Below, piece after piece: positions 22,938 through 42,148 of a DNA stretch of 64,000 nucleotides (the stretch's first letter is position 1; every line of letters begins with the position of its first letter). Origin of the DNA: a virus; the IMG/VR virus record IMGVR_UViG_3300042806_000370; one strand, given 5' to 3'. Both the position numbers and the translations under genes were made by a program. The notes below the pieces were generated by a model. The model did not search any database, was not told where the DNA came from, and was given only the letters and a program-made list of their open reading frames with translations.

Positions 22938-22943
22938 AATCAG

Positions 22944-22971
22944 ATAATACACTAAAAACTAGGAATGTCAA
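22944..22971 (-). promoter_or_regulatory. sigma70-type promoter, leaderless dut transcript
   Basis: TTGACA-N16-TATTAT-N6-ATG. Confidence 0.75.
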
Positions 22972-27000: not shown

Positions 27001-27008
27001 ATGTCATA

Positions 27009-27015
27009 TATTTAT
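27009..27015 (-). promoter_or_regulatory. Late promoter
   Basis: ATAAATA 8 nt before ATG 27000, no SD. Confidence 0.7.
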
Positions 27016-27020
27016 GGTTA

Positions 27021-28898
27021 TCAGCTGATCCAAACCTGAGATCCGCTTTTAGTTACTGACGTATAGATTATTCCATCATCCGTGTTGTACCATCTATCAC
27101 CTGGGTTTGAAGATGCTGGTGCGGTTAAACCCTCGGTGAAAATACAAGCATAATTTTGTATACTTCCGTCAGGAAATTGTAATCCACCATTCGTAAGCTC
27201 AAGAGAAATAGAACCATTTCCGCTTATGCTAGTAAAAGCATCAATATCTAAAGTTGAAGAATTGATATTTACAGTCGATAGAGCATCTTCAGTTGCTATT
27301 TGAAATATATCAGATTTTTTACCAGCAGTAAAACCATAAGCAAAAATCTTAAATGCGTTTGTTATTCCGTCAGAAATGCCAAAACGCAATTCTGGTGCTT
27401 GACCAAGCAATCCCCAATTAGCAAGAAGAACAGCAAGGTCTGCACCGTTCACAGTTCCGTCTAAATTTACATCCCCAAGCAACCCATTCGTTAATAGCGT
27501 TATCTTTACCCAGGCATCAGGGTTTGTTGCAGTAGTATAATAATAATATGCACCATTACCATCGCCACTATCAACCACCCACGCTAAATCACCATCTTCT
27601 GGATTCGGAGATGCCTGTAAAGCTGTTACATTAGGAAATGATCTTAGTAACTTATAGCCAGAATCAATAGACACTGTTATATTACCAGTTCCTCCAGAAG
27701 GAGAAACTGTTATTCCGTCAGTTCCAGCAATTGATAAAACACCAGTATTGGAATAAGTTATGGTATTATTCGAATATGTTACGCCTATTCCAGAGCCTGC
27801 TGACCATGTGACTCCACCAGTAAATCCATTTGCAGTCAATACCGCTTGTGAAACTGATCCTCCCCCACCAACAGCATCAACTCTTACATTAGAACCTATT
27901 CTGGTTACATTTAGATTGTCACCGAAATCTATTACACCTACACCAGTTCTAACTACTATACTTCCCTTACTTCTTACGCCTAAACCGCTACCGCCACTGG
28001 CAAAAAGAGGATCTGAGGCTAGTTTTGAAATTTTTTCGTCAAATAATTTTATATCGACAGAAATGCTTTTTTTCGCTTTATCATAAACTAAAGGATAAGA
28101 AGCAGATAAAAGGCCAGTGTCTCCTTGATCACCCTTATCGCCTTTAGGACCCTGCAATCCTTCGGGACCCTGTTCTCCTTGTATTCCTTGCGGCCCCTGT
28201 GGCCCTCTAGGACCTTGTGGACCCTCTGGACCAACATCCCCCTGTGGGCCTTGTGGTCCTGGTTCTCCAGCTAAACCATCATCCCCCTTAAGCCCCTGTG
28301 GGCCTTGTGGTCCTGGTTCTCCTGCATCTCCTTTATCGCCCTTGTCCCCTTTAGGTCCCTTTGGTCCTTTGGGGCCAATAGAACCAGGTTCTCCCTTATC
28401 TCCTTGCAATCCACGGGGACCCATTGGCCCAGCTGGACCTATTGGGCCAGCAGGACCCATTGGGCCTGGTTCGCCGTCCTTACCGTCCTTGCCATCGGAT
28501 CCTGGAAGGCCATCTGATCCTGGATCCCCTCTTATTCCCTGCAACCCCCTTGGACCAGCTGGACCCTGCATTCCAGGAGATCCAACACTAGGTGCAGCTT
28601 CTATTACAGTTTCTGGTTCCTCAAAAATATTGAGAGGAGCAGACTTTGATGGTATAATAGTAAATTTTTGTTGTATCTTTGGGAGTGGTTGAAAATTTTC
28701 TGTAATCAAACTGTCATTGCTTTTGATAAGCAATATTTCTCCAGTTTCATCTTTTAGAAAATAATTCTTAGTTCCGCCTAATTTATATTCTTTTCCATAC
28801 CACTGAGTAGGAACACATTCAAATACAGAACCTTTTTTTAGATCCTGTATGTCATTTTTTAATATTATCTTTGTTCCAGGCGTAAAACTATTTTTCAT
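27021..28898 (-). CDS. Collagen-like fibre protein with dockerin-type motif
   Basis: 52 uninterrupted Gly-X-Y triplets; [22 protein letters not shown]; C-terminal [14 protein letters not shown]. Confidence 0.85.
28113..28583 (-). repeat. Collagen Gly-X-Y coding repeat
   Basis: GSP GMQ GPA ... GDQ GDT G, counted from the translation. Confidence 0.95.
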
Positions 28899-28901
28899 TT
28901 A

Positions 28902-29027
28902 TCACCTGTAATATACTTCTACAGTAGAGTCCTTCTTGATCTTTATTTTAGAAACAATACCTCTTACTGTTCTTGTTTTTTGCCTGTCGGTGGCTATCTT
29001 TGAAAATTTTTTAATCTTTAACTTCAT
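28902..29027 (-). CDS. 41-aa basic peptide (not in ORF track)
   Basis: ATGA overlap with upstream gene; MKLKIKKFSKIATDRQKTRTVRGIVSKIKIKKDSTVEVYYR; fills the gap exactly. Confidence 0.6.
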   Translation of the reverse strand: MKLKIKKFSKIATDRQKTRTVRGIVSKIKIKKDSTVEVYYR

Positions 29028-29452
29028 AGTAAACCACCATCTTCATTTGATAGTTCAAATCTTCCTCTCAACAATGTATCTGAGAAAGTGTTGCCATTAA
29101 AAATTTCCAAAGAATAAAAATGTCTTCCACTAGGAATACTTCCCATAATATCCGAATCTATGCTAACATAAATTCCACCAGTCAAAGTGGCAAGATTTTC
29201 ATCTTTATTTCTATAAACAAAAGATTTTGAAGAATCGTGAGTCAATCCTCCAGTTCCGGTAGGAACATAATAGGTAACTCCAGTTACACCAGCAATTATT
29301 AAAGTATGCTCATCCATCGGTAAAGCTCTGAAGACGCTAAAGGTAACTTTATCGAATGTTGCAGAAATAGCAGCATCATTTTCATCGTAATAAGTTACAT
29401 GAAAATTAAAATTGTTTCCCTTTATGCCTTCAAGATCTTTTTGTGGAGTCAT
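29024..29452 (-). CDS. BppU-N-like Ig-fold virion accessory protein
   Basis: KGNNFNFHVTY...YVSIDS..MGSIPSGRHFYSLEI...TLLRGRFEL pattern. Confidence 0.6.
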   Translation of the reverse strand: MTPQKDLEGIKGNNFNFHVTYYDENDAAISATFDKVTFSVFRALPMDEHTLIIAGVTGVTYYVPTGTGGLTHDSSKSFVYRNKDENLATLTGGIYVSIDSDIMGSIPSGRHFYSLEIFNGNTFSDTLLRGRFELSNEDGGLL

Positions 29453-30666
29453 ATTCTAGCTTTCTTCTTCTTTTTATTTATCTTCTTTTTTTCCTTTTCT
29501 TTTTGCTTCTCTACCATTTCAGCCATAGCTCTTTCATCTTGAATCTTTGCTACAATATGCTTGTAAGAATTGAAGTTGTTTTGAATTCTTTGTCTATGTT
29601 CTTCTGGAAATTTATTTTCGCAAAGAAGCTTATGACAAATTTGCATTCCCAAGTGAAATTTTCCTACTGAATGGGCAACCGCACCTAATTCATCAAGAAT
29701 GCCCCATGAGTATGGAATTTCTTCTACGAACAAATCATCCATTACTGGTCTTGGAATCTCCAATGCCATGCGCGCATAAATGTATGCTGCCTTTGGCCTG
29801 TCATTCATTCTACAGAGTCTTGCTAATTGATACAGTGGCTCTGCTCTTGTTGGTCTTGCTTCGTATGATCTCATGAACATGTCATAGATTTCATTCCAAG
29901 GATGTTGTAGGAAGACCTTACAAATTGCCATTCTGTAGATAGAGAAAAATATCTCTTCTTCCCAACCACCAAGTTCAGATCTCTTTCTATAAGCCTCAAG
30001 AGCTTTTTCAAATTGGAAAGAATCAAAATAGCTTTGTGCAAGATAAAAATGATATCTTGTATTTGTCGGATCTTCTAAAATTGCCTTTTCTAGAACTTCT
30101 GCATCTCTGGCATACTTTTCCTTCGGATCGATACCTACGTTTCTTGCACCTTCTGTTCTAGCTTCTATGCAATAGTTTCCAGGTAGCTTTTCTATCTTGT
30201 ATGGCTTAGGTTCAGAATCTGGATATTCGTGAAGAATTCCGACATATTTCCAATCCCTATTGTTCTTGAATAGCTGTGTTCTCCACCAAGAAAATTCACC
30301 TCTCTTGAACTGTAAGGTATAAGCATCTGCACTTGCATTTTCTGGTAGCACTAATTCACCGTGTAGGAAGTCATCTGCGTCTATGACCCAAGCATAGTCT
30401 GCCTTGCCTTTGGCGTTCTGGAACGCCTCTGTACGAGAGCCAATACTGTTCCCGTGATTACCGAATCCCTTCCAATCTGACTGGTAAATTTCTCCTGGAA
30501 TATTCTTCTCAGCAAAAAACTTACGAATCATATCCTGAGTTCCATCAGTAGAACCAGTATCTGTGATATCGTAACGGTCAATATACTTGTAAACAGATTC
30601 TAAACAGCGAAGAATAACGTGAGTTTCGTTCTTCACGATCATGCATAGTGTAATTGTTGGTTTCAT
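29449..30666 (-). CDS. GT2 glycosyltransferase with TPR-like repeats
   Basis: LCMIVKNE, DTGSTDGT, IDADD, GILHE; RYHFYLAQSY, RAEPLYQLA. Confidence 0.9.
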   Translation of the reverse strand: MKPTITLCMIVKNETHVILRCLESVYKYIDRYDITDTGSTDGTQDMIRKFFAEKNIPGEIYQSDWKGFGNHGNSIGSRTEAFQNAKGKADYAWVIDADDFLHGELVLPENASADAYTLQFKRGEFSWWRTQLFKNNRDWKYVGILHEYPDSEPKPYKIEKLPGNYCIEARTEGARNVGIDPKEKYARDAEVLEKAILEDPTNTRYHFYLAQSYFDSFQFEKALEAYRKRSELGGWEEEIFFSIYRMAICKVFLQHPWNEIYDMFMRSYEARPTRAEPLYQLARLCRMNDRPKAAYIYARMALEIPRPVMDDLFVEEIPYSWGILDELGAVAHSVGKFHLGMQICHKLLCENKFPEEHRQRIQNNFNSYKHIVAKIQDERAMAEMVEKQKEKEKKKINKKKKKARI

Positions 30667-30675
30667 ATTGTATCT

Positions 30676-30703
30676 ATTCTACATTTTGGAGCGATAAAAT
30701 CAA
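30676..30703 (-). promoter_or_regulatory. sigma70-type promoter
   Basis: TTGATT-N16-TAGAAT, 9 nt before ATG. Confidence 0.65.
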
Positions 30704-31593
30704 GTGTTATTCTTGATCCAAATTTCCACATCTATCTTTGGCTTCCATCCTAGATGGCTTATTTGTTCTATATTTGCTAAAGTTGATTTAGCTTCTCCCT
30801 CTCTTGGGGGCAAATGTTTGGTTGGCCCACCAACCATTTTTGCTATTTCGTTTACCGAATAATTTTTTCCGGTTCCAACATTTAATGTTCTAGTCAACAT
30901 TTTAGTATCACCATAATCGTGGTTGGCTAAAAGAATGTTTGCTTCGACAACATCGGAAACATGAACAAAATCTCTTCTTTGTTCTCCATTACCTACTATA
31001 GTAAGTGGTTCTCCAGCTGCCTTCTGTCTTCCGAAGATACCAATTACAGGTGCATATTGCCCTTTTACTGGTTGCCTTTCTCCAAAAACATTGAAATATC
31101 TAAAAATATGTGTTTCTAGACCATACATTTTAGAATATAATTTGCACAATTCTTCCGCATTTTGTTTAGTTACAGAATACGCATTTAGGCAATCTGGTGG
31201 AGCTGCTTCATTGCTTTTTCCAGTATTACCGTAAATTGCAGAAGTTGACGAAAGAAGTACCTTTTTGACTCGGTGTTTTCGTGCTAGCTGAAGAACCGTT
31301 CCTGTGCCAAGAACATTGACTTCTATTGCCTTGAGAGGATCTTCAATGCAATTTTGTATTCTCGCCTCTGCTGCTAGATGAAATACTACATCAACATGAT
31401 TATACATGTCACTAGTCATAACATAATCAGTTACGCAGTGATGATTATACTTTGCTTTTTTATTGAAGTAAAATTCATTATGTGCGTCTGACGAGAGATT
31501 GTCAATGACATTTACTTCATGACCATCTTCTATAAGACGATCAACTAGATTCGATCCAATAAATCCACAACCGCCAGTTACTAAGTATTTCAT
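30700..31593 (-). CDS. NAD-dependent nucleotide-sugar epimerase/dehydratase
   Basis: TGGCGFIGS, HLAA, SSTSAIYG, YSVTK, RYFNVFG, RDFVHVSD. Confidence 0.93.
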   Translation of the reverse strand: MKYLVTGGCGFIGSNLVDRLIEDGHEVNVIDNLSSDAHNEFYFNKKAKYNHHCVTDYVMTSDMYNHVDVVFHLAAEARIQNCIEDPLKAIEVNVLGTGTVLQLARKHRVKKVLLSSTSAIYGNTGKSNEAAPPDCLNAYSVTKQNAEELCKLYSKMYGLETHIFRYFNVFGERQPVKGQYAPVIGIFGRQKAAGEPLTIVGNGEQRRDFVHVSDVVEANILLANHDYGDTKMLTRTLNVGTGKNYSVNEIAKMVGGPTKHLPPREGEAKSTLANIEQISHLGWKPKIDVEIWIKNNT

Positions 31594-31599
31594 TTTATT

Positions 31600-32289
31600 T
31601 TATATCTTAAAGTAATTACATGCAAAAGTATCTCTTATCGGAGAACCCATTTCAAATTCTTTATTATTAAAATCAACAAAAAGATTTGTTAATACGCTCT
31701 GATCATGTCTATGATCTATAAAATCTGGAAAATTATTCCCATGAACATTTGGCATATCAGTTACAATATTTTCATCTTTGCAAAATTCTAACCATTTATT
31801 AACAAATTCTTTATTTTTATATGTATTTTTAAAAGCAACCACTCCTGCTTCTAATTGAATCTGATTTCTATATTTTTCATCTAAACAATTCATTTTATAA
31901 AAACAATCATACTTTGTATATTGACTTTGCTTAAAAGCACCACCAATAAACAATGTATCTTGTAAATTTATTGAGCTATTTACATAATTAATAAATGCTG
32001 GTGGATTTAAAATTATATCTCCACTATCCATATAAATTACAGTTTCGTCATTTGGTATTAATTCTAAAGTTTTTAAAATAAAATAAGGTTTCCATAAACA
32101 ATAACCAAAACATCTTTTTTGGTCTAAAATATGCTTATTTTCTGAATAAAATTGTGTTTTATATAAATCAGTTTCATTAAAAATATGAAAATCATTAAAA
32201 ATTTTAAATTTTGCCAAATTTTTAACTGTATCGTTTTTAAATTTTTCATACAGTTTATCAGAAAACATTAAAAGGTGAAAATTATTCAT
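31600..32289 (-). CDS. Putative GT-A glycosyltransferase
   Basis: GYCLWKPYFI, IYMDSG, DHRHDQSVLT. Confidence 0.7.
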   Translation of the reverse strand: MNNFHLLMFSDKLYEKFKNDTVKNLAKFKIFNDFHIFNETDLYKTQFYSENKHILDQKRCFGYCLWKPYFILKTLELIPNDETVIYMDSGDIILNPPAFINYVNSSINLQDTLFIGGAFKQSQYTKYDCFYKMNCLDEKYRNQIQLEAGVVAFKNTYKNKEFVNKWLEFCKDENIVTDMPNVHGNNFPDFIDHRHDQSVLTNLFVDFNNKEFEMGSPIRDTFACNYFKI

Positions 32290-32296
32290 ATTTTAA

Positions 32297-32890
32297 TTAA
32301 GTAAAATAAATTCCGTAAGCATTATCTTTAGTATGAAAATTTGGTTCTGTTCCACCAATATATCTTTTAACACAATCACCAAAATGCATTTTGAAAAAGT
32401 CTATATTAAATGTATGTGGATGACAAGGATCATATTCTTCTGGAGATCTAATATCAATAGGTTCAAAAAATTTAATAATTTTACAACTTTTTTTGCATTT
32501 TTCAATTATTAAATTTGGATCTATTGTGTGTTCTAAAATATTAAGTAACCATATTTCATCAACATTCGGAAAATCTATATCTTCAGCTGGTTTATTTATT
32601 AGGTCTATTCCACATTTTTTATATAAAAAAATATTTTCCTCATATATTGTAGGTTCTATAACAATTGCTTTAGAAAAATTTTTACAAAAAAACAAAGAAG
32701 ATACTCTAGCTGGACCTATTTCTATAATAGATTTGTTGTTTAAATCTGGATTTATATTTAAATACTTAAAATAAATTTGATATCCATTTTTATAGTGAGT
32801 TAAAGATTCTTCAAAAGATGTTGTTATGTGATGTTTTTTTTCTTCAATTTGTGCTAAGTTCCATCGCTCATTAGTTATTTTTTGTATCAT
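32297..32890 (-). CDS. Class I SAM methyltransferase
   Basis: IIEIGP, VIEP, LNILEHTIDP. Confidence 0.65.
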   Translation of the reverse strand: MIQKITNERWNLAQIEEKKHHITTSFEESLTHYKNGYQIYFKYLNINPDLNNKSIIEIGPARVSSLFFCKNFSKAIVIEPTIYEENIFLYKKCGIDLINKPAEDIDFPNVDEIWLLNILEHTIDPNLIIEKCKKSCKIIKFFEPIDIRSPEEYDPCHPHTFNIDFFKMHFGDCVKRYIGGTEPNFHTKDNAYGIYFT

Positions 32891-32900
32891 ATTTTTTCTT

Positions 32901-33725
32901 TTATTTTAAATTATAAATTGCTCCGTGCTGATATGCTATTTCCGTTATATTTAGGAAATTATCTTGAGGCATTATTAGATTTAATATTAAATATCTTATA
33001 GGAGCATCACCCCATCTATTAATGTAGATTCCTCCAGATTTTTTAATTTCTTCATAAAATTGCATATATTTTGATTCTTTAAACCAAGATATCTTACCGA
33101 TTTCAAAATTATTATAAAACATACCATTTTCTCTGATGTTTGAAATAGTAGTTAATGTTTTTATTTTATTAGTTTCTATATAATTTTTAATAAAATCATT
33201 TAGACCAATAGTAACTTTTGGATTATCTAATTGAATTGCTTCTCCAATAAATCCATAAAAAGAATTTAATTTTTTCATTTTATCAAAAATATTTTCTTTA
33301 ACTTCTCTTAATATAAAGGAATCAGTATCAAGGCGCATATAGTAGTCATAATTTTCTAATATTTTTTGATTATAAATTTCTCCTGCAAAAAAATTACACA
33401 TATGCCTATAACCAATTGTAAATCCTGGATGTCCCCATGCTATCGGACCATTTCCATGTGTAGGATGTGGAAAATATTCTGGTATTTTATTTAAAATTTC
33501 TTTACTATAATCTAAAGTAAAATTTAATTCTTGAAATATAAAGGATATGTTTGGGAAAATGTTTTTTATATTTTCTATATGACTATTAAATTCTTTTTCG
33601 TGAAAAACAACAACATCTGCGACATGTGTTTTTAAAAAATTCTTTTCTAATAATAATAAACTTTTTAAAAAATCTTTTATTTCTTGTTCTCTATGATTTA
33701 CCAAATAAACTATACAATTTTTCAT
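32901..33725 (-). CDS. GT15 (Kre2/Mnt1-like) alpha-1,2-mannosyltransferase
   Basis: GYRHMCNFF, YDYYMRLDTDS, FYNNFEI, SGGIYINRWGDAPIR. Confidence 0.85.
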   Translation of the reverse strand: MKNCIVYLVNHREQEIKDFLKSLLLLEKNFLKTHVADVVVFHEKEFNSHIENIKNIFPNISFIFQELNFTLDYSKEILNKIPEYFPHPTHGNGPIAWGHPGFTIGYRHMCNFFAGEIYNQKILENYDYYMRLDTDSFILREVKENIFDKMKKLNSFYGFIGEAIQLDNPKVTIGLNDFIKNYIETNKIKTLTTISNIRENGMFYNNFEIGKISWFKESKYMQFYEEIKKSGGIYINRWGDAPIRYLILNLIMPQDNFLNITEIAYQHGAIYNLK

Positions 33726-34351
33726 TTAATTATCCATCCTATCTGGTAACCTTCAAATAATTTTTCTGCTCCTATAGATTCCATAAATTCTTTAACATAT
33801 GTACCTTTTCCTATTTTTCCTTGAGTAAAAAAAGCATCATGGTCATCTACTAAAATTATAGAACCTGATTTTAAATTTTTAGTAGCTGCACAGAGTTCTT
33901 TCAAATGATGTAATTGAGATGGATGTGGATTATGTTTTTCTATATCATAAGAATCTAAATACAAAAAATCTATCTTGATTTCTTGTGGTATGTTCCATAA
34001 AAATTTTACAGAATCTGAACAAAATATTTTTGTTTTTTCGCTTACAAATTTTTTGGCATGATCTACGTTATTTTGAGAAATATCCACAGAATAAAATTTT
34101 CCTTTTACTGTTTGGATAAATTTATCAAAGATAAAAGTACTAGCCCCATCATCACCAAATGCTATAGTACCATGATCAGCTCTCATACAACCAGTTTCTA
34201 CTAAAAAATAATCTTTATTGCTACTATTAGAACATAATAGTTCAAATACTTTAAGAAAAGAATCTGCTCTATTTCTTATAGGATTTGCTGGGTGACCTGG
34301 AATTAAAAGTTTTTGGTAAATTTCCGATTTATAAAAATTTAAAAAGTTCAT
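33722..34351 (-). CDS. Class I SAM methyltransferase, sugar O-methyltransferase-like
   Basis: LVETGCMR, YSVDI, DSVKFL, IDFLYLDSYD, ILVDD. Confidence 0.75.
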   Translation of the reverse strand: MNFLNFYKSEIYQKLLIPGHPANPIRNRADSFLKVFELLCSNSSNKDYFLVETGCMRADHGTIAFGDDGASTFIFDKFIQTVKGKFYSVDISQNNVDHAKKFVSEKTKIFCSDSVKFLWNIPQEIKIDFLYLDSYDIEKHNPHPSQLHHLKELCAATKNLKSGSIILVDDHDAFFTQGKIGKGTYVKEFMESIGAEKLFEGYQIGWIIK

Positions 34352-34360
34352 TTTATTTTA

Positions 34361-35062
34361 TTAAATGTTTTTATTTGATAAATTATTGAAATAATTATAA
34401 TGATCCGTATAAGATCCTTCTTTTAGAGTCGATTGTGAAGGAATTGTATTAATTAGTGGTGGTATAAAAGCAAAACAATCGTTTGTTTCGTAAAATTTTC
34501 TTGCAAAAAAACCATCTGCTGCACTTAAACCATTTTTATTACAAAAATTATTTTCCGTAATATTAATATAATTTTCGTAAAAATTTTTATTTACAATATA
34601 AGCAAAAGATCCATTACATGCTTTAATTTTATTAATATTTAATTTATAGGGAATTAACCAATCTTCGATATAATACCCTCCAATATGGAGGATATCAAAA
34701 ATAAAATCTATGGATATGTTTTTTATAGAATTTGGTTCTTTAATATTAAAATCATTTTCAAAAATTAAAACATTATCATAATTTTCTTTTTTTGCATTTT
34801 TAACTATTTCTAAATGAGACATCATTAGACATAAATTTTTAAGATTATATAATTCTCTATTATTTTTTGGTTCATAATTATAATATTCAAATTTATATTT
34901 ATTATAATATTCTTTATAATTTTTTAAAGTATCTGGAACTATTGCTTCAAATACATTTATATTATTAAAAACATTTTTTTGGATTTGATCGTATATATTT
35001 TTAGCTCTTTCGCTACAGCCTTTATTGTGGATAATAAATGCTGGAATATCTGTCATTTTCAT
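34361..35062 (-). CDS. GT25-like glycosyltransferase
   Basis: SERAK, CLMMSH..I.K.A, VLIFEND, GSFAYIV, AADG. Confidence 0.7.
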   Translation of the reverse strand: MKMTDIPAFIIHNKGCSERAKNIYDQIQKNVFNNINVFEAIVPDTLKNYKEYYNKYKFEYYNYEPKNNRELYNLKNLCLMMSHLEIVKNAKKENYDNVLIFENDFNIKEPNSIKNISIDFIFDILHIGGYYIEDWLIPYKLNINKIKACNGSFAYIVNKNFYENYINITENNFCNKNGLSAADGFFARKFYETNDCFAFIPPLINTIPSQSTLKEGSYTDHYNYFNNLSNKNI

Positions 35063-35862
35063 AATAATCTATCTTCTTTTATTCTATATTTTATTATTAA
35101 TTCTTTATGGATATTTAAAAATAATTTTGTATTTTTGTGATTGGCTTGTAATAGCCAAGGAGCTGGAGATCCATTAATTCTAGTTCCCCCCCAAGAATCT
35201 TTAGACTCATAATCTATCCAATAACATCCACATATTTTTCCCAATTTTGTTTTGGCTCTATAGCATAGATCATGGTCATCCATGTCTTGTGGAGCAAAAT
35301 TTTCATCTAAATAATTTAAAGATTTAATATCTTCATGTTTAAGCATAAGTGGTCCTCTATTAACAGAACTTCTTATTGCAAATATATTTCTTGGTGTATT
35401 ATGGCAGTTAGCATGATCTACATGATTCAAAATATCGCACCAACAATTATCTAAATTTTCTTTAAGATATAAATGTTTAGTTTTTTGGTTGAATTCCCAA
35501 TTATGAGCAGTTCTTGATGTTACAGCAAATACGTCATTGAACTGAAATGGTTTTATCATTCTTTCGTTCCAACCATATTCTTTTATGATCATATCATCTT
35601 GAATTATTGTACAGTAATCTCCAGAACTATTTTTAAGACCTATATTATTTGCTTTTGTTTCAAATACATTATCGGCATAATAAATGTTAATTTTATCAAA
35701 TTTTTGTTTATTTTGTTTTACAATTTTTTCTGAACTATCGGTACATCCATCAAGAATAATATTTAATTCATAAAAACCTAAAGTATTTTCTTTAATGCCA
35801 TGCAATACTTTTTCTAGTAAAAACTCTTTATTATGTACTGTCAATATTATACTATGTGTCAT
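35059..35862 (-). CDS. GT2 glycosyltransferase
   Basis: SIILTVHN, ILDGCTDSS, IQDDM, PQDMDDHDLCYRA. Confidence 0.85.
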   Translation of the reverse strand: MTHSIILTVHNKEFLLEKVLHGIKENTLGFYELNIILDGCTDSSEKIVKQNKQKFDKINIYYADNVFETKANNIGLKNSSGDYCTIIQDDMIIKEYGWNERMIKPFQFNDVFAVTSRTAHNWEFNQKTKHLYLKENLDNCWCDILNHVDHANCHNTPRNIFAIRSSVNRGPLMLKHEDIKSLNYLDENFAPQDMDDHDLCYRAKTKLGKICGCYWIDYESKDSWGGTRINGSPAPWLLQANHKNTKLFLNIHKELIIKYRIKEDRLL

Positions 35863-35963
35863 ATTAAATCGCGTTTTATTTTATTCAAAAAATCATCATA
35901 TTTTATTATTTTATCTTCGTCGTTTTGACTAAAAAATATTTTTAACGTATTTTAAATAATGAT

Positions 35964-36725
35964 TCATTTGTATTTTTTCCAATATTCTTGAGTATTATAG
36001 TAATTTAATAATTCTTCTTTTGTCATATTTATTATTTTTTCATGATATAAAACATTATGTTCATATGATTTTTTTCTAATTGATGGTGGATGTTCTTGGT
36101 GAAATACTAAATTATTTCCCCATTTTACATTATATCCCAATTTTTGAAATCTTATAGCTCTCTCTATATCTTCTGGTCCCCAGTCAACATAGTTTTCATT
36201 TTCCATAAAACCTTTTCTATAAGATTCTGTATTAAAAAATTGACAATGACCATACATCGTGCAATGATAATCGCTTTGTTTTATTTTTAATTTAGAAAAA
36301 TCAAAATAACTTTTAAATTCTATTACATCGTTTCTTTCTGGATACAATCTGATTTGATGCATTTTTTGAAGACCAAAAGGATAATATAAATCAACTTTGT
36401 TTTCTAATATTTCTTTTTCTGCCAATTTATATGTTTCTGGTAATAAAAAAACATCAGCATCATAATTTACTGTTATAGGCGTTAAAACGCAGTTTAACAT
36501 TTGATTTAATAATTTTGTTCTATAAAAGTAATTTGTATTATTATTTACAAAATGGTATTCTAATCTATCAGAAGATTTTATTTTTAATTTTTGATCAGTA
36601 TCTGATTCTGTTACTATTATATTACCATTAGTATTTTCTAATAAAAATTTAATACAATTGTTTATATTATTATATCTGATATCAGAATCTATTTTTACTG
36701 GTATTATAAATGTGGTATTAATCAT
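35964..36725 (-). CDS. GT2/GT7-like glycosyltransferase
   Basis: FIIPV..D...R, NYDADV, GFMENENYVDWGPEDIE. Confidence 0.75.
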   Translation of the reverse strand: MINTTFIIPVKIDSDIRYNNINNCIKFLLENTNGNIIVTESDTDQKLKIKSSDRLEYHFVNNNTNYFYRTKLLNQMLNCVLTPITVNYDADVFLLPETYKLAEKEILENKVDLYYPFGLQKMHQIRLYPERNDVIEFKSYFDFSKLKIKQSDYHCTMYGHCQFFNTESYRKGFMENENYVDWGPEDIERAIRFQKLGYNVKWGNNLVFHQEHPPSIRKKSYEHNVLYHEKIINMTKEELLNYYNTQEYWKKYK

Positions 36726-37521
36726 GATAAATTTTATTCAAAAATAAGTCTATGCAATTTTCTACTGTATTTTGTTTTACAATTTTTTGTGCAATTTCAT
36801 AATTTTTAAAAATATATTCTTTTTTACTTTCGTATAAAGAAAAACTTAAATTGTCTATTTCTGCTATATCAATAATTCCTCTTGGATCATATATATCGGC
36901 TATATCTGGATCTCCCCAATATATTGGTATTGTTCCAGATAGCATGCAATCATTTATTTTTTCTGTATAGTAACCAGATTCTCTGCAATTTTCTATTGCA
37001 AAATTAAAACAATAATTTATTAATCCATCTTCTTTATTTTTAATTGGATTATCAAATAATTGACCATAACCATCTATTATACCAGGTTTTGTTAATGATT
37101 TTAAACTGTGTCTTAATTTATGCCCTTCTGAATATTTTTTTTCAGAAAAAATCATTGAAGCTAATTTTGTTTTATTTGTGGTAAAACAATTTTTGGATAA
37201 AGATGTTCCTGCATTAGGTGGAATTATAATAGCATTTGATAAAAAATTAAATCTTTTATGGCAAGTTATAATATGATCAAAATTTTTAGTGTAATTTAAA
37301 TCGTTTAATAGCTCATAACATATAGGAATAAGTCCATATGGTTCCGAAAGATACAAAATTTTTTTCTTAGTAGAGTCTTTTATTATTTTGATATTATCTA
37401 CAAATAAATAACAATCTGCTTCTTGTATATTATTAACTTTAATAAATTTATTGCCTATAAATTTAAAATTTTTCCAAGTTATTGAATCCACTAAAGATTC
37501 TACAATATAAATTTTAATCAT
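36718..37521 (-). CDS. GT10-like fucosyltransferase
   Basis: YCFNFAIEN...GYYTEKINDCMLSGTIPIYWG. Confidence 0.85.
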   Translation of the reverse strand: MIKIYIVESLVDSITWKNFKFIGNKFIKVNNIQEADCYLFVDNIKIIKDSTKKKILYLSEPYGLIPICYELLNDLNYTKNFDHIITCHKRFNFLSNAIIIPPNAGTSLSKNCFTTNKTKLASMIFSEKKYSEGHKLRHSLKSLTKPGIIDGYGQLFDNPIKNKEDGLINYCFNFAIENCRESGYYTEKINDCMLSGTIPIYWGDPDIADIYDPRGIIDIAEIDNLSFSLYESKKEYIFKNYEIAQKIVKQNTVENCIDLFLNKIYHD

Positions 37522-38288
37522 AAAAGAACCATATCACTACGATATATTTTTTCCCAATTTTTTGGTCCGCCATTATTATTATACCATCTATTAGGTACAA
37601 TAACTTTTTTATTTAAATTTTCATTCAACCACGATCCCCACCAAGAATAAGAGCTATTTGAAAGTATATTATGATCACATAAAGACATAAGAGCTAAATC
37701 AACTTCTGCTGAATTATCCATTATTATATTTGGTATATTTTTAAACTTATTTTTACAAAATTCTTTATCGTCTGTAAAAATAACATAAAAATAATCATTT
37801 CCAAATTTATCCATTGCTTTTTTAAAGTAATTATCATCACAAACTGTATGGATGGAATTTGGCAATAAATAATCACTTCTTCTTACATGAACAGATACTA
37901 ATTCTTTTTTTACTTTATCTTTAAGCTCTTTTATAAATTTGAAGCAGGCATCCATCATATCTTTTTTAAAGATAAATAAATTTTTTAGATCATATTCTAT
38001 ATCATAGACATATTTACTATTTTGAAAATATCCATAACAATCTGTATTATCTTCTATATTAGAAGTATCAATATAAGCACAATCATTAAGTTGTATTAAA
38101 GCATTTTTTTGTGCTATTTGAGTAGAATCTTTTAATGGAAGATCAAAAATTTTTGTTATTAAAGGTCTGTGGATATAATCATAACCTATTTCTAAATTTT
38201 TATGTTTAGCTACATTGTATATAAAAGCAAATTGAAACATTTGATTACCTAATCTTCCCATATTTCCTAAATTTTTAAAAGTAATCAT
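37518..38288 (-). CDS. GT11 alpha-1,2-fucosyltransferase-like
   Basis: GRLGNQMFQ, GYFQN, VHVRRSDY, DLALMSLCDH.I.SNSSYSWW. Confidence 0.92.
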   Translation of the reverse strand: MITFKNLGNMGRLGNQMFQFAFIYNVAKHKNLEIGYDYIHRPLITKIFDLPLKDSTQIAQKNALIQLNDCAYIDTSNIEDNTDCYGYFQNSKYVYDIEYDLKNLFIFKKDMMDACFKFIKELKDKVKKELVSVHVRRSDYLLPNSIHTVCDDNYFKKAMDKFGNDYFYVIFTDDKEFCKNKFKNIPNIIMDNSAEVDLALMSLCDHNILSNSSYSWWGSWLNENLNKKVIVPNRWYNNNGGPKNWEKIYRSDMVLL

Positions 38289-38911
38289 CCCTTTACCTCC
38301 AATTCACATTTTGTCAAATGTTCCCATTTATTTGAACTTTCTGCCAAATCTGCCTGATAAAATACTGGTTTATTTGGTGTCAATACTTGAAAAAATTTCT
38401 GTAAATATGCACATCCAATATCGAACGGAGTGCGTCTATTATACACAAGATCTTTTGACATATTTTTTACTTCTTCTCTATACCGCTGACTTGTATATAA
38501 AATGGCATGTGTTGCCAAAATACCAGCTATTCTTTTATAATTTTCATTATATCGAATGCAATTATAAAACATATTACCCGTGCTTATTCCCAAATATAAA
38601 GCAGCTGTTTCGTCTGGAATTTCCAATACAGGATTAAAATTTTCTTCAATGACTTCAACATCATCTTCAAGAATTAAAAATGGTGTCTTGAGATCTGCAA
38701 TTTCAAATATGTCAATATGCGATTGAGCACACCCGACATAATGCTTATTACTTGGAATCGTATCTGGCGGTGCTGGTATTACTCTAGCAGACTTCCTAAC
38801 GGTGTTCTTGAAGCCTAGCTTCTCAAACATCTTAGTCATTCTTTCTGCATTTTTTATGGCAGAGTCTAAATTAATCCAGTATACTGGTATTTCACGAAGA
38901 TCTATTTTCAT
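38285..38911 (-). CDS. GT25-like glycosyltransferase
   Basis: YWINLD, GCAQSH, LILEDD, ATHAILY. Confidence 0.75.
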   Translation of the reverse strand: MKIDLREIPVYWINLDSAIKNAERMTKMFEKLGFKNTVRKSARVIPAPPDTIPSNKHYVGCAQSHIDIFEIADLKTPFLILEDDVEVIEENFNPVLEIPDETAALYLGISTGNMFYNCIRYNENYKRIAGILATHAILYTSQRYREEVKNMSKDLVYNRRTPFDIGCAYLQKFFQVLTPNKPVFYQADLAESSNKWEHLTKCELEVKG

Positions 38912-39200
38912 AATTAATAAATTTATTAGAATATTCTAGCAAATATTCGCTATTAGTCAAGATATAATCAAATCTGGATTCAATTTCTGCTATATTATCT
39001 ACAGCAAATTTTGTCATTCTTTCATCATCTATAAAAGCTAAATTAATTCTTGTTTTTTCTTTTGGGTATAAAAATACAGCATCGCCAATACCATTACCCC
39101 AAAATACTTCTACAGGTTTATTTAAGCTTCTCACTTGTAAAAAGTTGTAAACATAATCTCTTATATCAAGAGGAATAAAATCTTCATTGTAAATATACAT
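38892..39200 (-). CDS. Hypothetical protein, possibly the N-terminal remnant of a GT10-like gene
   Basis: RFDYILTNSEYLL echoes NFDHIITCHK in the GT10 ORF; no catalytic half. Confidence 0.5.
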   Translation of the reverse strand: MYIYNEDFIPLDIRDYVYNFLQVRSLNKPVEVFWGNGIGDAVFLYPKEKTRINLAFIDDERMTKFAVDNIAEIESRFDYILTNSEYLLEYSNKFINYENRSS

Positions 39201-39610
39201 TATTTTTTACCGATATGATACTTTTGAATAAGCTGCCAATTTTTCTTTTCTGAATGAGGAATTATTTTAATTTGGTTTAACCCCAATTGAGGTTCCTTAT
39301 ATTTATTCTCATTAATTGGATCTATTAATCCCCATTCTTTTAGCAACTTTACTATTATGTTTCTTCTGCCAAGATCATTGCTGTCCATATTGCTATCAAG
39401 ACCATCAAGAACAAACATCTCCTTGAAGTGCATGATTGCATATCTTCCTCTCTTGTGCAAAATGTGACATGATTGATAAAGCTTTTTTTCTTGTTTTGAA
39501 GAAACGCCTATACGGGTTAATGTTTCCTTAACCTTCAGAAAGTCCTGTTCGGACTTTAGCTTTATTTCTACACCTAAACCTTGAAAAATATCCTCGTCAA
39601 CTGCGCTCAT
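39200..39610 (-). CDS. regA: Translational repressor
   Basis: DFLKVKETLTRIG...LYQSCHILHKRGRYAIMHFKE; start at ATG after GGAG. Confidence 0.95.
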   Translation of the reverse strand: MSAVDEDIFQGLGVEIKLKSEQDFLKVKETLTRIGVSSKQEKKLYQSCHILHKRGRYAIMHFKEMFVLDGLDSNMDSNDLGRRNIIVKLLKEWGLIDPINENKYKEPQLGLNQIKIIPHSEKKNWQLIQKYHIGKK

Positions 39611-39628
39611 AATATCTCCATACAAGGA

Positions 39629-39635
39629 TATTTAT
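39629..39635 (-). promoter_or_regulatory. Late promoter upstream of regA
   Basis: ATAAATA. Confidence 0.55.
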
Positions 39636-40003
39636 TAAATTTTGTATTCTTCTACATGCTTTACAATAGCATCCTTTTGTTCCTGGGTCAAAAGAACCTC
39701 ATATTCGCATGCTTTACGATAGGAGACATCGTAATACTTGATAATAGCCTGAATTACATCGCTCTTATCTTTCTTGGCCCATCCGCTGAACCGTTTTCGC
39801 TTACGGACAGCCAATCTATAGTAATCGTATTGCATTCTCTTGTCTAGGAATGGATACTTGTTCATTTCGTTGGCATAGGCCACGGTATCCATGAAATAAG
39901 AGAGAGACTTATTGACTATAAAAGGAACATAATCCCGACCATCCTGGTCGAGAATATCTTCCTTAGTATAGTTGATGGATTCTAGAACCTTTCCTAGATT
40001 CAT
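39635..40003 (-). CDS. gp62: Clamp loader small subunit
   Basis: YVPFIVNKSLSYFMD...ANEMN...QYDYY..AVRKRKRFSGW. Confidence 0.92.
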   Translation of the reverse strand: MNLGKVLESINYTKEDILDQDGRDYVPFIVNKSLSYFMDTVAYANEMNKYPFLDKRMQYDYYRLAVRKRKRFSGWAKKDKSDVIQAIIKYYDVSYRKACEYEVLLTQEQKDAIVKHVEEYKI

Positions 40004-40950
40004 TTGCCGATGCCCTTAAACTCGCAGTTCATCATGATCTCAACCATCATGGCTGTCAGATTGATCTCCTGATCAGCCACAAAAGCAGACTTGTATTGAT
40101 ACTCGGCAATGATGGTAATTGCTTGCGGAATACTGCTTGGGACTAGCATCTCCTGTAGATTATCGTAAATCTTACGGAAAATATCCGTGCTATTATCCAG
40201 GTTCTTCACGATCCATTCACGAACAGACTTGAAGTTCTTTTGAGCCATGAAACCAATTAGCTTGGCAACATCAACATCCTTGACCTCAGAGAGAATTCCG
40301 ATGTCGATCTTTCCCGATACAGAGTATCGCTGAAGTTCGTTGATGATTCGCCTAAAGTCTGGGAAGTGCTTGATTACGAGTTGTCTAACTGCACCGTCAT
40401 TGTATTCAATATTTTCAGCAGTTAGAATTTTGCAAGCTCGCTTGTACATTTCAAGACCAAGCGTGGAGTTTTCTCCTGATTGAATATTGAAGTTGATCTC
40501 TGTGCAGCGAGAGTGAAGAGGTTCAATGATTCGATACTTCCAGTTACAGGTCATGATAAATCGGCAGTTGGCTGCAAATTCCTCAATGGCCCCGCGCAAA
40601 GCAGGCTGAATGCTCTGGGCATTAGAGTAATCGAACTCGTCCAGAATCACTACCTTCTTGGCATCGGTCAATGATACAGTGCTAGCAAAGCCACGAATCT
40701 TTGTTCGCAGAGTATCAATATTCCCATCCTCTGAGCAGTTGATGAGAATGTAATCACACCCAAGATCATTGCAGAGGGCCTTGGCAACGGTAGTCTTACC
40801 GCATCCAGGCTTACCAACAAACATCATGTTCTGCAATTCACCACCCTTTACCATTTCGCTAAAGGTAGCTTTTAGTTCCTTTGGAAGAACACAATCGGAT
40901 AGCGTCTGGGGTCGATACTTCTCGACCCACAGGTACTGGTCAGTTGTCAT
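40000..40950 (-). CDS. gp44: Clamp loader large subunit
   Basis: WVEKYRP, GKPGCGKTT, LDEFD, LHSRC. Confidence 0.95.
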   Translation of the reverse strand: MTTDQYLWVEKYRPQTLSDCVLPKELKATFSEMVKGGELQNMMFVGKPGCGKTTVAKALCNDLGCDYILINCSEDGNIDTLRTKIRGFASTVSLTDAKKVVILDEFDYSNAQSIQPALRGAIEEFAANCRFIMTCNWKYRIIEPLHSRCTEINFNIQSGENSTLGLEMYKRACKILTAENIEYNDGAVRQLVIKHFPDFRRIINELQRYSVSGKIDIGILSEVKDVDVAKLIGFMAQKNFKSVREWIVKNLDNSTDIFRKIYDNLQEMLVPSSIPQAITIIAEYQYKSAFVADQEINLTAMMVEIMMNCEFKGIGK

Positions 40951-40952
40951 GA

Positions 40953-41663
40953 TTAGCTCCCGCTGTTACTGCTAGATTCTAGGGCGATCCAATAGGTCAG
41001 ATTTAGATTCTTTGAAGTAAACTTGCTGATAACCTTGCTTCCGATTTGGACATCGTAAGAGCCGGGGATCATCTTGAGATTTTCCATCTTTAGACGGAAT
41101 TCAAAATCATCATCAAAATCGGCATCAAGGCAGTCTTCAGTGCTTCCGAGGCTGATTGAATAGGTGTTTGTGGTGCTGTCCTTGACATCACAGACCTTGG
41201 CAAATACCTCCCCGTCCTCAGCGTAGATCGACATATCAGCGACCTGAAGGACTCCAGAAGCCTTCTGAAGCTCGTTTAGCTTCTTATCCGACAGGCTGAA
41301 CTCTAGGACCACTGAGGGCATCGTAAGGGCCTTTGGCGGGTTGCTGGTAATCAGCTTTGGTTCACAGTAGAAGTACTTGACCGAAGATCCGGTATCGTTC
41401 GAAATTTCAAGGTACTTATCGTGGAACTCCAGTTCAGGGTTTTCAAACAGCGATAGAATACCGAGGAACTGGGATAGATCCCAGATACCGAATTCCTGGT
41501 CAAATGTTTCCTCTACCGTGGCTTCGGCCACAATGTTCTTGTAGGAGGACATCGTAGCAAGCTTGTTTCCAGGACGAATCAGCAGATTGCTGTTGATCGT
41601 TGAGAAGTTCTTCAGGATCTGAAGAGTGGGCTTGCTGAGAGTTAGTTTGGATGTAGTTTTCAT
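40953..41663 (-). CDS. gp45: Sliding clamp
   Basis: LKNFSTINSNL, FGIWDLSQFL, YFYCEP, ENLKMIPGSY, YWIALE. Confidence 0.95.
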   Translation of the reverse strand: MKTTSKLTLSKPTLQILKNFSTINSNLLIRPGNKLATMSSYKNIVAEATVEETFDQEFGIWDLSQFLGILSLFENPELEFHDKYLEISNDTGSSVKYFYCEPKLITSNPPKALTMPSVVLEFSLSDKKLNELQKASGVLQVADMSIYAEDGEVFAKVCDVKDSTTNTYSISLGSTEDCLDADFDDDFEFRLKMENLKMIPGSYDVQIGSKVISKFTSKNLNLTYWIALESSSNSGS

Positions 41664-41684
41664 AATATAAAATTCACCTTTCGA

Positions 41685-41846
41685 TCAGGTATTGTCCTGC
41701 AAATAGTCAAAAAAGTCAAGGCTTCCGTCACGCAAATCATGCATTAATTTCTTCGTGGCATGACGCAAATCACGAAGTTTTTTCTTTCTAAAGAATCTTG
41801 CGAGTTTCCTGGCCCGAATGATTTTCCATAGTGGATGTTTTTTCAT
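41685..41846 (-). CDS. 53-aa basic protein (not in ORF track)
   Basis: ATGA overlap; MKKHPLWKIIRARKLARFFRKKKLRDLRHATKKLMHDLRDGSLDFFDYLQDNT. Confidence 0.65.
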   Translation of the reverse strand: MKKHPLWKIIRARKLARFFRKKKLRDLRHATKKLMHDLRDGSLDFFDYLQDNT

Positions 41847-42148
41847 AAGATACCTACCCAAGAATACGAGTTGTTGTCATAGACATATTCATACAACATA
41901 CCAACCGTTGTATTAAACCATCTCTGACCAACAACTGGCTCGTAGGGGGCGGAAGCTCCAACATGAACTCCTGCTGAGTTGAGAAGCCTCCAGCCCCTTT
42001 TTTCGCCGTGTTCGGGAGAAAATCCACTTGTTTCAAAAGATGCAACATAATACTTGCCCTCTTTCTCTACAATGCTCCCATACTCGTATACCTTGAGTGT
42101 ACCGTCTGGATTAGCAATCTTAAATTTTCCTTTAAAATTGAGATCCAT
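41843..42148 (-). CDS. Small protein with CBM5/12-like motif and fibre-type C-terminal motif
   Basis: YEYGSIVEKEGKYYVA..T.G.SP......W; APYEPVVGQRWFNT..G.LY. Confidence 0.55.
   Translation of the reverse strand: MDLNFKGKFKIANPDGTLKVYEYGSIVEKEGKYYVASFETSGFSPEHGEKRGWRLLNSAGVHVGASAPYEPVVGQRWFNTTVGMLYEYVYDNNSYSWVGIL

Follow-up and report, generated by a model that had tools for sequence, protein, structure and literature searches.

We analysed a 64,000-nt stretch of viral DNA (IMG/VR record IMGVR_UViG_3300042806_000370; "the window" below means this whole stretch) and focused on a cluster of putative glycan-assembly genes at positions 29449–39200. The layout of open reading frames (ORFs) showed that 13 contiguous ORFs, all on the minus strand, fill this interval, as a preliminary description made from the sequence alone had stated. 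The cluster is placed between regA and the tail-fibre block of a T4-like phage and adjoins regA (39200–39625), gp62, gp44 and gp45. Its ORFs are separated by gaps of 6–33 nt or overlap by 4–20 nt, with a 101-nt gap at 35863–35963 as the sole exception. They comprise nine glycosyltransferases (one weak), two methyltransferases (one weak), one epimerase and one ORF of no assigned function. Nine genes, from o229 to GT11, form a 6.7-kb island of low GC content (31600–38288; 21–27% GC, GC3 ~0.1); outside it, GC was 37–38% in GT2-TPR and the epimerase gene, 43–44% in the core genes gp44 and Gmd and roughly 40% in the genome. Five of the island genes recur in related loci and are marked below as the core cassette. 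The features of the cluster are as follows.

29449–30666, minus strand: GT2-TPR, a GmaR/SunS-like putative protein glycosyltransferase of 405 aa (PF00535, E 4e-11, plus tetratricopeptide repeat (TPR) families)
30700–31593, minus strand: SDR297, a nucleoside diphosphate (NDP)-hexose 4-epimerase-like extended short-chain dehydrogenase/reductase (SDR) in the conserved right flank (PF01370, E 5e-54)
31600–32289, minus strand: o229, GT-A fold, core cassette, last island gene (model with a predicted local distance difference test score, pLDDT, of 64)
32297–32890, minus strand: o197, class I S-adenosylmethionine (SAM)-dependent methyltransferase (Atlas features 0.96; template-modelling (TM) score 0.73–0.80 to Methyltransf_11/23 clusters; alignment motifs)
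32901–33725, minus strand: GT15 (Kre2/Mnt1-type) alpha-1,2-mannosyltransferase-like protein, core cassette (PF01793, E 2e-26, 93.7 bits)
33722–34351, minus strand: MT209, probable SAM-dependent methyltransferase (PF13578, Methyltransf_24, E 1e-3, below the cut-off; phrog_24975, E 6e-51)
34361–35062, minus strand: GT25a, a weak GT25-like call (PF01755, 22.7 bits, under the cut-off of 24)
35059–35862, minus strand: GT2, core cassette (PF00535, E 2e-17, 64 bits)
35863–35963, no strand: indel site between strains (the 101-nt gap; a close relative, locus L001, has a 622-bp insert here, L001:7201–7822)
35964–36725, minus strand: o253, GT-A fold of GT2/GT7C type, core cassette (model pLDDT 82)
36718–37521, minus strand: GT10 alpha-1,3/4-fucosyltransferase-like protein (PF00852, 33.9 bits against a cut-off of 23.9)
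37518–38288, minus strand: GT11 alpha-1,2-fucosyltransferase-like protein, core cassette, first island gene (PF01531, E 1e-26, 94.3 bits against a cut-off of 23.9)
38285–38911, minus strand: GT25b, GT25-like protein in the conserved left flank (PF01755, 26.8 bits against a cut-off of 24)
38892–39200, minus strand: o102, a small conserved ORF beside regA, in the conserved left flank

GT2-TPR has an N-terminal GT2 domain, with a DxD motif (DADD) at residues 96–99, followed by TPR families at residues 185–305. We compared its family profile with solved structures, and the results showed a match to GmaR, the Listeria flagellin O-GlcNAc transferase, over positions 1–197, the full catalytic domain (E 1.6e-15), together with matches to the peptide S-glycosyltransferases SunS (E 2e-7) and ThuS-like 7msk (E 7e-7). 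The remaining matches with E <0.01 were TPR-repeat proteins only, aligned to the TPR region. The TPR domain of GmaR has been proposed to recognise flagellin (PMC9638930), and that of FlmG, a cytoplasmic flagellin O-glycosyltransferase, was shown to bind its acceptor (PMC7591256). The likeness of GT2-TPR to GmaR and SunS appears to be the strongest clue to the acceptor of this system, and a protein acceptor is plausible. Relatives of GT2-TPR were found in 17 IMG/VR viral loci and in 15 phage records, none of the latter being cyanophages.

Directly downstream of GT2-TPR lies a small ORF followed by three fibre genes, which are listed below.

29024–29452, minus strand: orf142, BppU_N/LtfC-like small protein (Atlas features 0.95; TM score 0.64–0.66 to BppU_N/LtfC clusters)
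27021–28898, minus strand: collagen-like tail-fibre protein, 625 aa (PF01391, E 2e-26; PHROG tail-fibre families, E 4e-37)
24271–27000, minus strand: tail-fibre or virion structural protein of 909 aa (PHROG families for tail fibres, tail spikes and virion structural proteins, E 1e-22 to 1e-19)
23519–24274, minus strand: Gly_rich_2 fibre-like protein (PF21722, E 2e-15; PHROG "tail fiber assembly" and tail-fibre families)

The orf142 product is probably a fibre anchor, and the start of its gene overlaps the stop of GT2-TPR (ATGA). We then examined this arrangement in relatives of the window. The results showed that orf142 directly follows GT2-TPR in 11 related loci, which are all the relatives with enough downstream DNA, down to a GT2-TPR identity of 51%; a collagen-like or p909-like fibre gene comes next in 10 of these 11, down to 54%. 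When we predicted the complex of GT2-TPR with orf142, the median score was 0.00, and one of three runs stood at the 0.32 mark.

On the other side of GT2-TPR, the 8 kb directly upstream are occupied by genes of diverse sugar pathways in at least 16 related loci, all of those examined. The contents of this slot differ even among relatives whose GT2-TPR is 80–85% identical. Two loci (L020 and L022) hold a dTDP-aminosugar set with RmlA-like, RmlC-like, DegT and methyltransferase genes. Three others (L021, L032 and L033) hold a thiamine pyrophosphate-dependent acetolactate-synthase-like gene, a PanB-like (ketopantoate-hydroxymethyltransferase-like) gene, DegT, a GT34-like gene and DUF5672, a combination which suggests a branched-chain or otherwise unusual sugar. 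A carbamoyltransferase is found in L023 and other GT2 enzymes in L019. SDR297 is 95–97% identical in L019 and L023, and GT25b is 82% identical in L019, although the cassette of L019 differs.

We next considered genes for membrane anchoring and export. No membrane segment was found in the 13 ORFs, the highest 19-residue Kyte–Doolittle mean being 1.11, and the cluster holds no flippase, polymerase or phosphoglycosyltransferase; the preliminary description had noted the lack of obvious membrane anchors and the absence of flippase and polymerase, and both statements hold. Among 180 ORFs, namely 159 cassette ORFs from the 16 related loci and the window's own, none encodes a polytopic membrane protein. 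Likewise, no initiating phosphoglycosyltransferase, Wzx/Wzy, Wzm/Wzt, ABC transporter or ligase was found in the window or in the variants examined.

GT10, GT11 and GT15 are assigned by family homology, and their use of GDP-mannose or GDP-fucose as donor is predicted. The phage GT15 family profile matched yeast Kre2p/Mnt1p (1s4n) at E 1.6e-36 over residues 28–294, the entire catalytic domain. Its invariant residues are Y106, R107, M109, C110, R237–D240 and H267, within the motifs YRHMCNF (YRHMC) and RWGDAP and a C-terminal metal-binding His, and the EPD of Kre2p is DTD in the phage family. The 274-aa protein starts at the catalytic domain, without a Golgi type II anchor or stem, and is a soluble form. 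The GT11 match spans profile positions 38–291 of 298, and the protein carries SNSSYSWWGSWL and HVRRSDY, the latter agreeing with HxRRxDY, the GT11 motif; its homologues occur in 103 phage records, mostly cyanophages. The GT10 match covers only profile positions 2–111 of 182, and the protein carries FAIENCRESGYYTEK, in agreement with FxxxFENxxxxxYxTEK, the alpha-1,3-fucosyltransferase motif.

For o229 and o197, sequence-profile searches of the PDB gave nothing meaningful, and for o253 they gave weak beta-4-galactosyltransferase or chondroitin-synthase matches only; we therefore used folds and the Atlas for these three proteins. VIA-align placed the PBCV-1 A64R glycosyltransferase domain (2p6w) first for o229 (Z 12.6), ahead of numerous GT-A enzymes (Z 10–11.6). 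This protein has conserved YLDSGD and HRHDQS motifs and homologues in P-TIM68 and S-SRM01. The o253 model matched K4 chondroitin polymerase and the WrtF fucosyltransferase in Foldseek (E 1e-9); it contains NYDADV and WGPEDxER, and its homologues show weak PF02709 or PF10111 matches. The PF01755 match of GT25b is limited to 43 residues (59–101). The protein contains an EDD motif within LILEDDVE, and its closest solved relative is Mimivirus R655, a weak match (E 0.004).

These results bear out the GT2-TPR, GT2, GT10, GT11, GT15 and SDR calls of the preliminary description, which agree with Pfam or NCBIfam matches and motifs. Its GT-A (31600–32289) and GT2/7 (35964–36725) calls also stand, both proteins modelling as GT-A folds while lacking a Pfam match. 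It had named two GT25 enzymes, of which one lies above the PF01755 cut-off over a short segment and the other below it, and two methyltransferases, of which o197 is a class I SAM-dependent enzyme and MT209 remains a weak call. It had also suggested that o102 might be a remnant. The o102 protein is 100% identical in L001 and 70% identical in L019, with no non-synonymous substitution relative to L001 (dN = 0); the reading as a decayed gene was therefore rejected in favour of a conserved ORF. This ORF gave no Pfam or PHROG match, and its GT4-N-terminal-like Atlas features were weak (<0.85).

The sugar supply was examined through Gmd and the SDRs. The window encodes Gmd outside the cluster:

16929–17963, minus strand: Gmd, GDP-mannose 4,6-dehydratase, between uvsX and the gp41-like helicase gene (PF16363, E 3e-113; TIGR01472, 373 bits against a cut-off of 415)

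The earlier Gmd call was confirmed by the PF16363 match, and the enzyme is predicted to supply GDP-4-keto-6-deoxymannose. No Fcl was found within the 64-kb window. SDR297 was considered as a candidate GDP-fucose synthase and rejected: its best NCBIfam match is GalE (141 bits, compared with 57 bits for Fcl), and its closest solved relative is the UDP-glucose 4-epimerase of T. maritima (4zrm, E 3e-49). Gmd, Fcl-like and GalE-like SDRs stand beside GT15 and GT11 in the cassettes of relatives, and because of this pairing a route from GDP-mannose to a GDP-6-deoxyhexose is a coherent logic for the system. Of the pathway towards GDP-fucose that had been proposed earlier, the route from GDP-mannose to a GDP-6-deoxyhexose is supported by Gmd in the window and by the SDRs of relatives; the making of fucose itself is not supported by the window's own complement, in which Fcl is absent and the SDR is GalE-like.

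We then compared the cluster with that of L001, a near-identical phage whose core proteins are 99–100% identical to those of the window. The ratio of non-synonymous to synonymous substitution (dN/dS) was 0.00–0.43 for all cluster genes and 0.06–0.43 for the nine island genes, and the cluster genes are under purifying selection in this comparison. Island and core had similar dS, and dN was roughly 3–20 times higher in the island. The most diverged gene was GT25a, with 80% amino-acid identity and a dN/dS of 0.43. Blastn, together with translation of L001:7100–7900, showed that the L001 insert at the 101-nt gap encodes an FkbM-like methyltransferase. Conversely, o197 has no counterpart in L001, which is missing 32306–32893. 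The two strains thus differ by a methyltransferase swap, one having been lost and another gained. In one metagenome run (X2), contigs identical to the flanks (26668–31951 and 38931–43000) had a depth of ~50, contigs of the island (31952–38930) had a depth of 2–17, with breaks in the assembly at 31951 and 38931. Alternative islands may exist on one and the same backbone in situ, although this is a hint only, contig depth being a poor measure.

A survey of homologous operons, which the preliminary description had proposed as a check, was carried out, and it recovered the core cassette in other phage backbones, among them a non-T4 phage and, as a related set at the Pfam level, cyanophages. The cassette of GT11, o229, GT2, GT15 and o253 recurs in six loci (L001–L006), in some of them with one or both methyltransferases, and the loci that carry it include large contigs of 276 and 471 kb. 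Copies of the GT2 at 35059–35862 are 51–69% identical in L002–L006. In three T4-like loci (L002, L003 and L014), the cassette lies beyond gp45 or between UvsY and gp47, and despite this displacement GT2-TPR remains beside regA, with a collagen-like gene next to it in L002. A 166-kb contig (L005/L039, IMG/VR 3300049919) holds all seven genes together, both methyltransferases included, its MT209 homologue being 52% identical and annotated with a weak PF13578. The phage on this contig is not T4-like and encodes DnaB, DNA polymerase III alpha, ClpP and a protein with sigma-70 region 2; its cassette has a GC content of ~40%, the same as the flanks. The presence of the seven-gene set in this type of phage indicates that the cassette moves between unrelated phage backbones. 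In addition, cyanophage loci carrying psbA and pstS (L015/L016; 142 blocks of the collection) hold GT11, GT2, GT15 and GT25, a related set at the Pfam level.

Soluble GT15 homologues were abundant in metagenomic data: one search found 309 of them, and a second one found 3,848 representative clusters. A tblastn search with the window GT15 gave zero matches in 50,697 phage records. A pattern-limited scan of 185,579 prokaryote species genomes found GT15 in four, all 34–42% identical to the phage GT15. One (L035) is on a 4-kb contig of a Minisyncoccia (candidate-phyla-radiation) metagenome-assembled genome (MAG), perhaps a mis-binned phage fragment, and the other three (L036–L038) are in Candidatus Methanoperedens MAGs. 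These results show that the soluble GT15 family is large and lies largely outside sequenced prokaryotes.

We also scanned the region for promoter motifs, and one such motif precedes the fibre block:

29475–29481, minus strand: ATAAATA (GATAAATA), from the motif scan, inside the 3′ end of GT2-TPR and ~22 nt upstream of the orf142 start

GATAAATA is a candidate T4-type late promoter for the fibre genes. A further motif, CATAAATA, was found at 27015, upstream of the 909-aa fibre gene, and exact TATAAATA was found upstream of gp23 and gp22. The island contained no exact TATAAATA and was depleted in ATAAATA, with 3 observed against 10.6 +/- 3.3 expected. Since the island lacks a T4-type late promoter of its own, it is probably reached by read-through from the gp45–regA unit, and the motifs would fit late expression of the fibre genes combined with such read-through into the transferases. 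A generic sigma-70 promoter scan showed no excess (82 sites against 79 expected from shuffles); terminator-like sites numbered 12 against 6.4 expected, none of them convincing between genes.

The genome around the cluster is that of a T4-like phage. The minus strand of the window encodes ThyX, primase, the gp41-like helicase, Gmd, UvsX and gp43, together with regA, gp62, gp44, gp45, gp46/47-like proteins, UvsW and UvsY, as well as gp23, scaffold, prohead protease, portal, sheath, terminase and gp15. In T4, regA adjoins gene 43; in the window, the two are ~17 kb apart. In order of transcription, the stretch between them contains the 13 ORFs (39200 down to 29449), the BppU_N/LtfC-like ORF, the collagen-like tail-fibre gene, the gene of the 909-aa protein and that of the Gly_rich_2 fibre protein, then genes for a PHROG "methyltransferase" and a dUTPase/dCTP-deaminase, and last an ORF that matches DUF1599 weakly. 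Megablast of the region gave no match in the 50,697 phage records, and gp44 is at most ~54% identical to those of cyanophages, pelagiphage Mosig and Methylophilales phage Melnitz. Several studies have yielded metagenomes with near-identical DNA, from the subsurface, drinking water, freshwater, wastewater and lakes.

Several further observations were made on these genomes. The collagen-like fibre protein has Lys-rich G-X-Y triplet repeats and a Ser/Thr/Gly-rich stretch at about residues 340–420. X-Lys-Gly is the type of site that is hydroxylated and glycosylated in animal and Mimivirus collagens, and no lysyl hydroxylase or 2-oxoglutarate (2OG) oxygenase was found among the window ORFs scanned. 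A link between collagen lysines and GT25, as in Mimivirus L230, is a lead only, the GT25 calls being weak. Between the fibre genes and gp43 (22102–23522), the weak DUF1599 ("nucleotide modification associated") ORF, the dUTPase/dCTP-deaminase and the PHROG "methyltransferase" (184 aa, without a Pfam match) could form a small nucleotide-metabolism or nucleotide-modification set. Each of two adjoining ORFs, 55585–56880 (431 aa) and 56880–58049 (389 aa), matches nothing but PF17482, the C-terminal domain of the tail sheath, and gp18 may have been duplicated or split here. An HNH_3 endonuclease domain is located C-terminally in a 774-aa protein (1000–3324), and another in a free-standing NUMOD4-HNH ORF (13486–13938) between thyX and the primase gene. 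Finally, the record that contains locus L004 (G001) has a thymidylate-synthase-like gene of ~2.1 kb at C1:16609–18729, in which PF00303 is matched in three pieces with stops between them; it may be intron-interrupted, like td of T4, or broken.

The families, folds, synteny, cassette variability, purifying selection and absence of membrane and export genes are direct observations on this DNA and its relatives. The reading that they best support is a cytoplasmic protein-glycosylation system acting on fibre proteins, which we hold tentatively and with less than even confidence. It is favoured because GT2-TPR resembles GmaR and SunS, because the order of GT2-TPR, BppU-like ORF and fibre gene is kept, because sugar genes lie upstream, and because lipid-carrier and export genes are missing. 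Under this reading, the phage would encode a system of two layers. The first, kept in the lineage, would consist of the GmaR/SunS-type GT2-TPR, usually with the GalE-like epimerase, and with the fibre-anchor ORF and three fibre genes downstream; the TPR domain would recognise a protein, most likely the adjoining collagen-like fibre or another fibre protein, to which the enzyme would attach the first sugar in the cytoplasm. The second layer would be the island, with GT11, GT10, two GT-A enzymes, GT2, GT15, a weak GT25-like protein and two methyltransferases as elongating and capping enzymes. These would extend the primer with mannose and a 6-deoxyhexose of fucose type, drawing on host GDP-mannose and phage Gmd, and would O-methylate the product. 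The transferases would be expressed before or alongside the fibre genes. The island is a swappable cassette, and because relatives hold other sugar pathways in the same slot, the type of glycan may vary between strains in a serotype-like manner. The acceptor, the sugars, the order of linkages and the timing of expression in this scheme are what we infer from gene content and arrangement.

A joint reading goes further, and as a whole it is rather doubtful. It holds that freshwater T4-like phages put an oligosaccharide on collagen-like tail fibres, begun by a GmaR/SunS-type enzyme and completed by the transferases and methyltransferases of a serotype-like cassette that is exchanged horizontally. 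"Glycotypes" would then vary between otherwise near-identical strains, and the soluble GT15 would be mainly a viral invention shared by unrelated backbones.

Several points weigh against fibre proteins as the target. Bacterial GT10, GT11 and GT25 enzymes act on lipopolysaccharide (LPS), lipooligosaccharide (LOS) or O-antigen and are soluble too, so missing membrane anchors do not discriminate between the readings. A GmaR-like enzyme could equally modify host pilin, flagellin or S-layer protein, and phage synteny can reflect the inheritance of modules and not a shared function. Furthermore, the core cassette is also found where GT2-TPR is missing and at a distance from fibre genes (L005/L039 and, as a related set at the Pfam level, L015/L016), which means that the island may act on another target and have no need of GT2-TPR. 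The window also lacks Fcl, with a GalE-like SDR in the cluster. The o229 model is middling (pLDDT 64), and its A64R match lies within ~1 Z unit of other GT-A folds.

A close rival, possible but on balance doubtful, is remodelling of the host envelope. Working at the cytoplasmic face, the enzymes would modify lipid-linked intermediates of the host (for LPS core, O-antigen or capsule) or proteins of its surface (pili, flagella, S-layer), the host would export the products, and the outcome would be to block superinfection or to stop progeny from adsorbing to debris. The families GT10, GT11, GT25 and GT2 are classically those of LPS, LOS and O-antigen synthesis, and the low GC and the cassette variation between kept flanks resemble bacterial O-antigen loci. 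However, phosphoglycosyltransferase, flippase, polymerase, ligase and ABC transporter are absent and none of the 180 ORFs is polytopic; since these lipid-carrier and export genes are lacking, a new repeat unit would rely wholly on host machinery. The cluster further resembles that of P-SSM2 (Gmd, epimerases, GT2, GT1, GT11, GT6 and GT25), and host-surface modification is the literature reading of analogous cyanophage clusters (PMC9602691, PMC12801897). The core cassettes that stand apart from GT2-TPR and from fibre genes point in the same direction, as does the lack of late-promoter motifs in the island, which would be expected of early or middle genes. On the other hand, the lineage-conserved GT2-TPR resembles enzymes that glycosylate proteins or peptides and not those of polysaccharides, and is bound to the fibre genes by synteny and a start–stop overlap; and GT15, found in just four loci among the 185,579 species genomes of the pattern-limited scan, is unlike a host-derived O-antigen gene.

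An unlikely alternative is that the function is split. GT2-TPR would add a single sugar to a fibre or other protein, and the island would be a separate module with another acceptor, for example a glycolipid of the host, a free oligosaccharide or a small molecule, the two being neighbours only through the hyperplastic region. SunS adds a single sugar, which counts for such a split. So does the single sugar added by GmaR (PMC9638930), as do the independent movement of the island in L002, L003 and L014 and its occurrence in phages without GT2-TPR. The sugar genes upstream of GT2-TPR in at least 16 loci are, however, hard to explain unless the slot is tied functionally to GT2-TPR or the fibres. 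It is highly improbable that the glycan is built on a modified phage base of the 5-hydroxymethylcytosine (5hmC) or 5-hydroxymethyluracil (5hmU) type to evade restriction. Nine transferases are more than any known DNA glycan would take, and GT10, GT11, GT15 and GT25 are, to our knowledge, outside the known DNA glycosyltransferase families. Among the ~60 window ORFs (64 kb) scanned with Pfam, there was no cytosine C5-methyltransferase, TET/5mYOX or dCMP/dUMP hydroxymethylase, and ThyX, ribonucleotide reductase and dUTPase/dCTP-deaminase suggest an ordinary dTMP supply. This is set against the glucosylation of 5hmC by T4-like phages, the weak DUF1599 match (22102–22434) and PHROG "methyltransferase" (22968–23522) close by, and phage clusters that attach mono- to trisaccharides to 5hmC with LPS-related transferases (bioRxiv 10.1101/2023.12.21.572611).

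The locus makes the long-standing question of what phage glycan clusters act on directly testable, since it offers a fibre-tied GT2-TPR that looks protein-directed, a defined variable slot and a recurrent core cassette open to expression and assay. Glycosylated fibres would add abundant aquatic myoviruses to the mycobacteriophages and giant viruses as carriers of virion glycosylation, with a bearing on host recognition, particle stability, grazing and the lectin-based capture of environmental phages. If the host surface is the target, the diversity of the cassettes would point to a receptor arms race.

Finally, we compared the cluster with known systems. Bacterial O-antigen and capsule loci share with it the low GC, the variable cassette of transferase and sugar genes between kept flanks, and GT10, GT11, GT25 and GT2; in contrast to them, the window and its variants lack a phosphoglycosyltransferase, Wzx/Wzy, Wzm/Wzt and a ligase. 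GmaR of Listeria and SunS/ThuS of Bacillus are, like GT2-TPR, soluble cytoplasmic enzymes, with an N-terminal GT2 domain followed by TPR in GmaR and SunS, whereas GT2-TPR is phage-encoded, has 405 aa and lacks the antirepressor domain of GmaR. FlmG of Caulobacter has a GT-B catalytic domain and is an architectural analogue only.

In mycobacteriophages, capsid and tail-tube proteins are modified by an O-methyltransferase and by glycosyltransferases encoded in tandem (Freeman et al. 2023, as cited in PMC11600133). Those systems resemble the present one in having soluble phage glycosyltransferases and a methyltransferase in tandem and in the cytoplasmic glycosylation, here a proposed one, of the phage's own structural proteins. 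They differ in belonging to actinobacterial siphoviruses, in using two or three transferases and in having capsid and tail-tube acceptors, and glycosylation is demonstrated there, whereas here it is what we infer. Giant viruses (PBCV-1 A064R/A061L and Mimivirus) use soluble transferases and sugar methyltransferases of their own to decorate virion proteins with methylated glycans that contain 6-deoxyhexose, and L230 of Mimivirus, a protein with a GT25-like domain, glucosylates Lys in viral collagen-like G-X-Y repeats (PMC9614988). The structure closest to o229 is A064R domain 1, and that closest to GT25b is Mimivirus R655. The giant viruses differ in their eukaryotic hosts, and the likeness of o229 lies within the general GT-A range while the R655 match is weak.

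The closest parallel was found in cyanomyoviruses, to whose type of glycan cluster the window cluster belongs by its T4-like core and by its composition as compared with P-SSM2. "LPS" or "cell wall synthesis and modification" clusters with Gmd, GT2, GT11, GT25 and in some cases GT10 have already been annotated in cyanophages P-SSM2, S-SCSM1 and S-SCSM2R (PMC9602691; PMC12801897), the last of which has 13 glycosyltransferases, including GT10 (267 aa), GT11 and GT25 (PMC12801897). Shared features are the T4-like backbone, a co-oriented hyperplastic block with Gmd, epimerases, GT2, GT11 and GT25 (and GT10 in S-SCSM2R), and the absence of export genes. In contrast to these cyanophages, the window phage comes from metagenomes of freshwater, groundwater and drinking water, and the window showed no genes for photosynthesis. 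Its cluster also differs in having a GT15 unmatched in the 50,697 phage records, a fibre-linked GmaR/SunS-like GT2-TPR, and a cassette placed in a defined slot between regA and GT2-TPR whose contents differ among close relatives. What is new here is the presence of a GT15 member, the link between a GmaR/SunS-like enzyme and fibre genes, the hypervariability of the slot and the recurrence of the core cassette across phage backbones.

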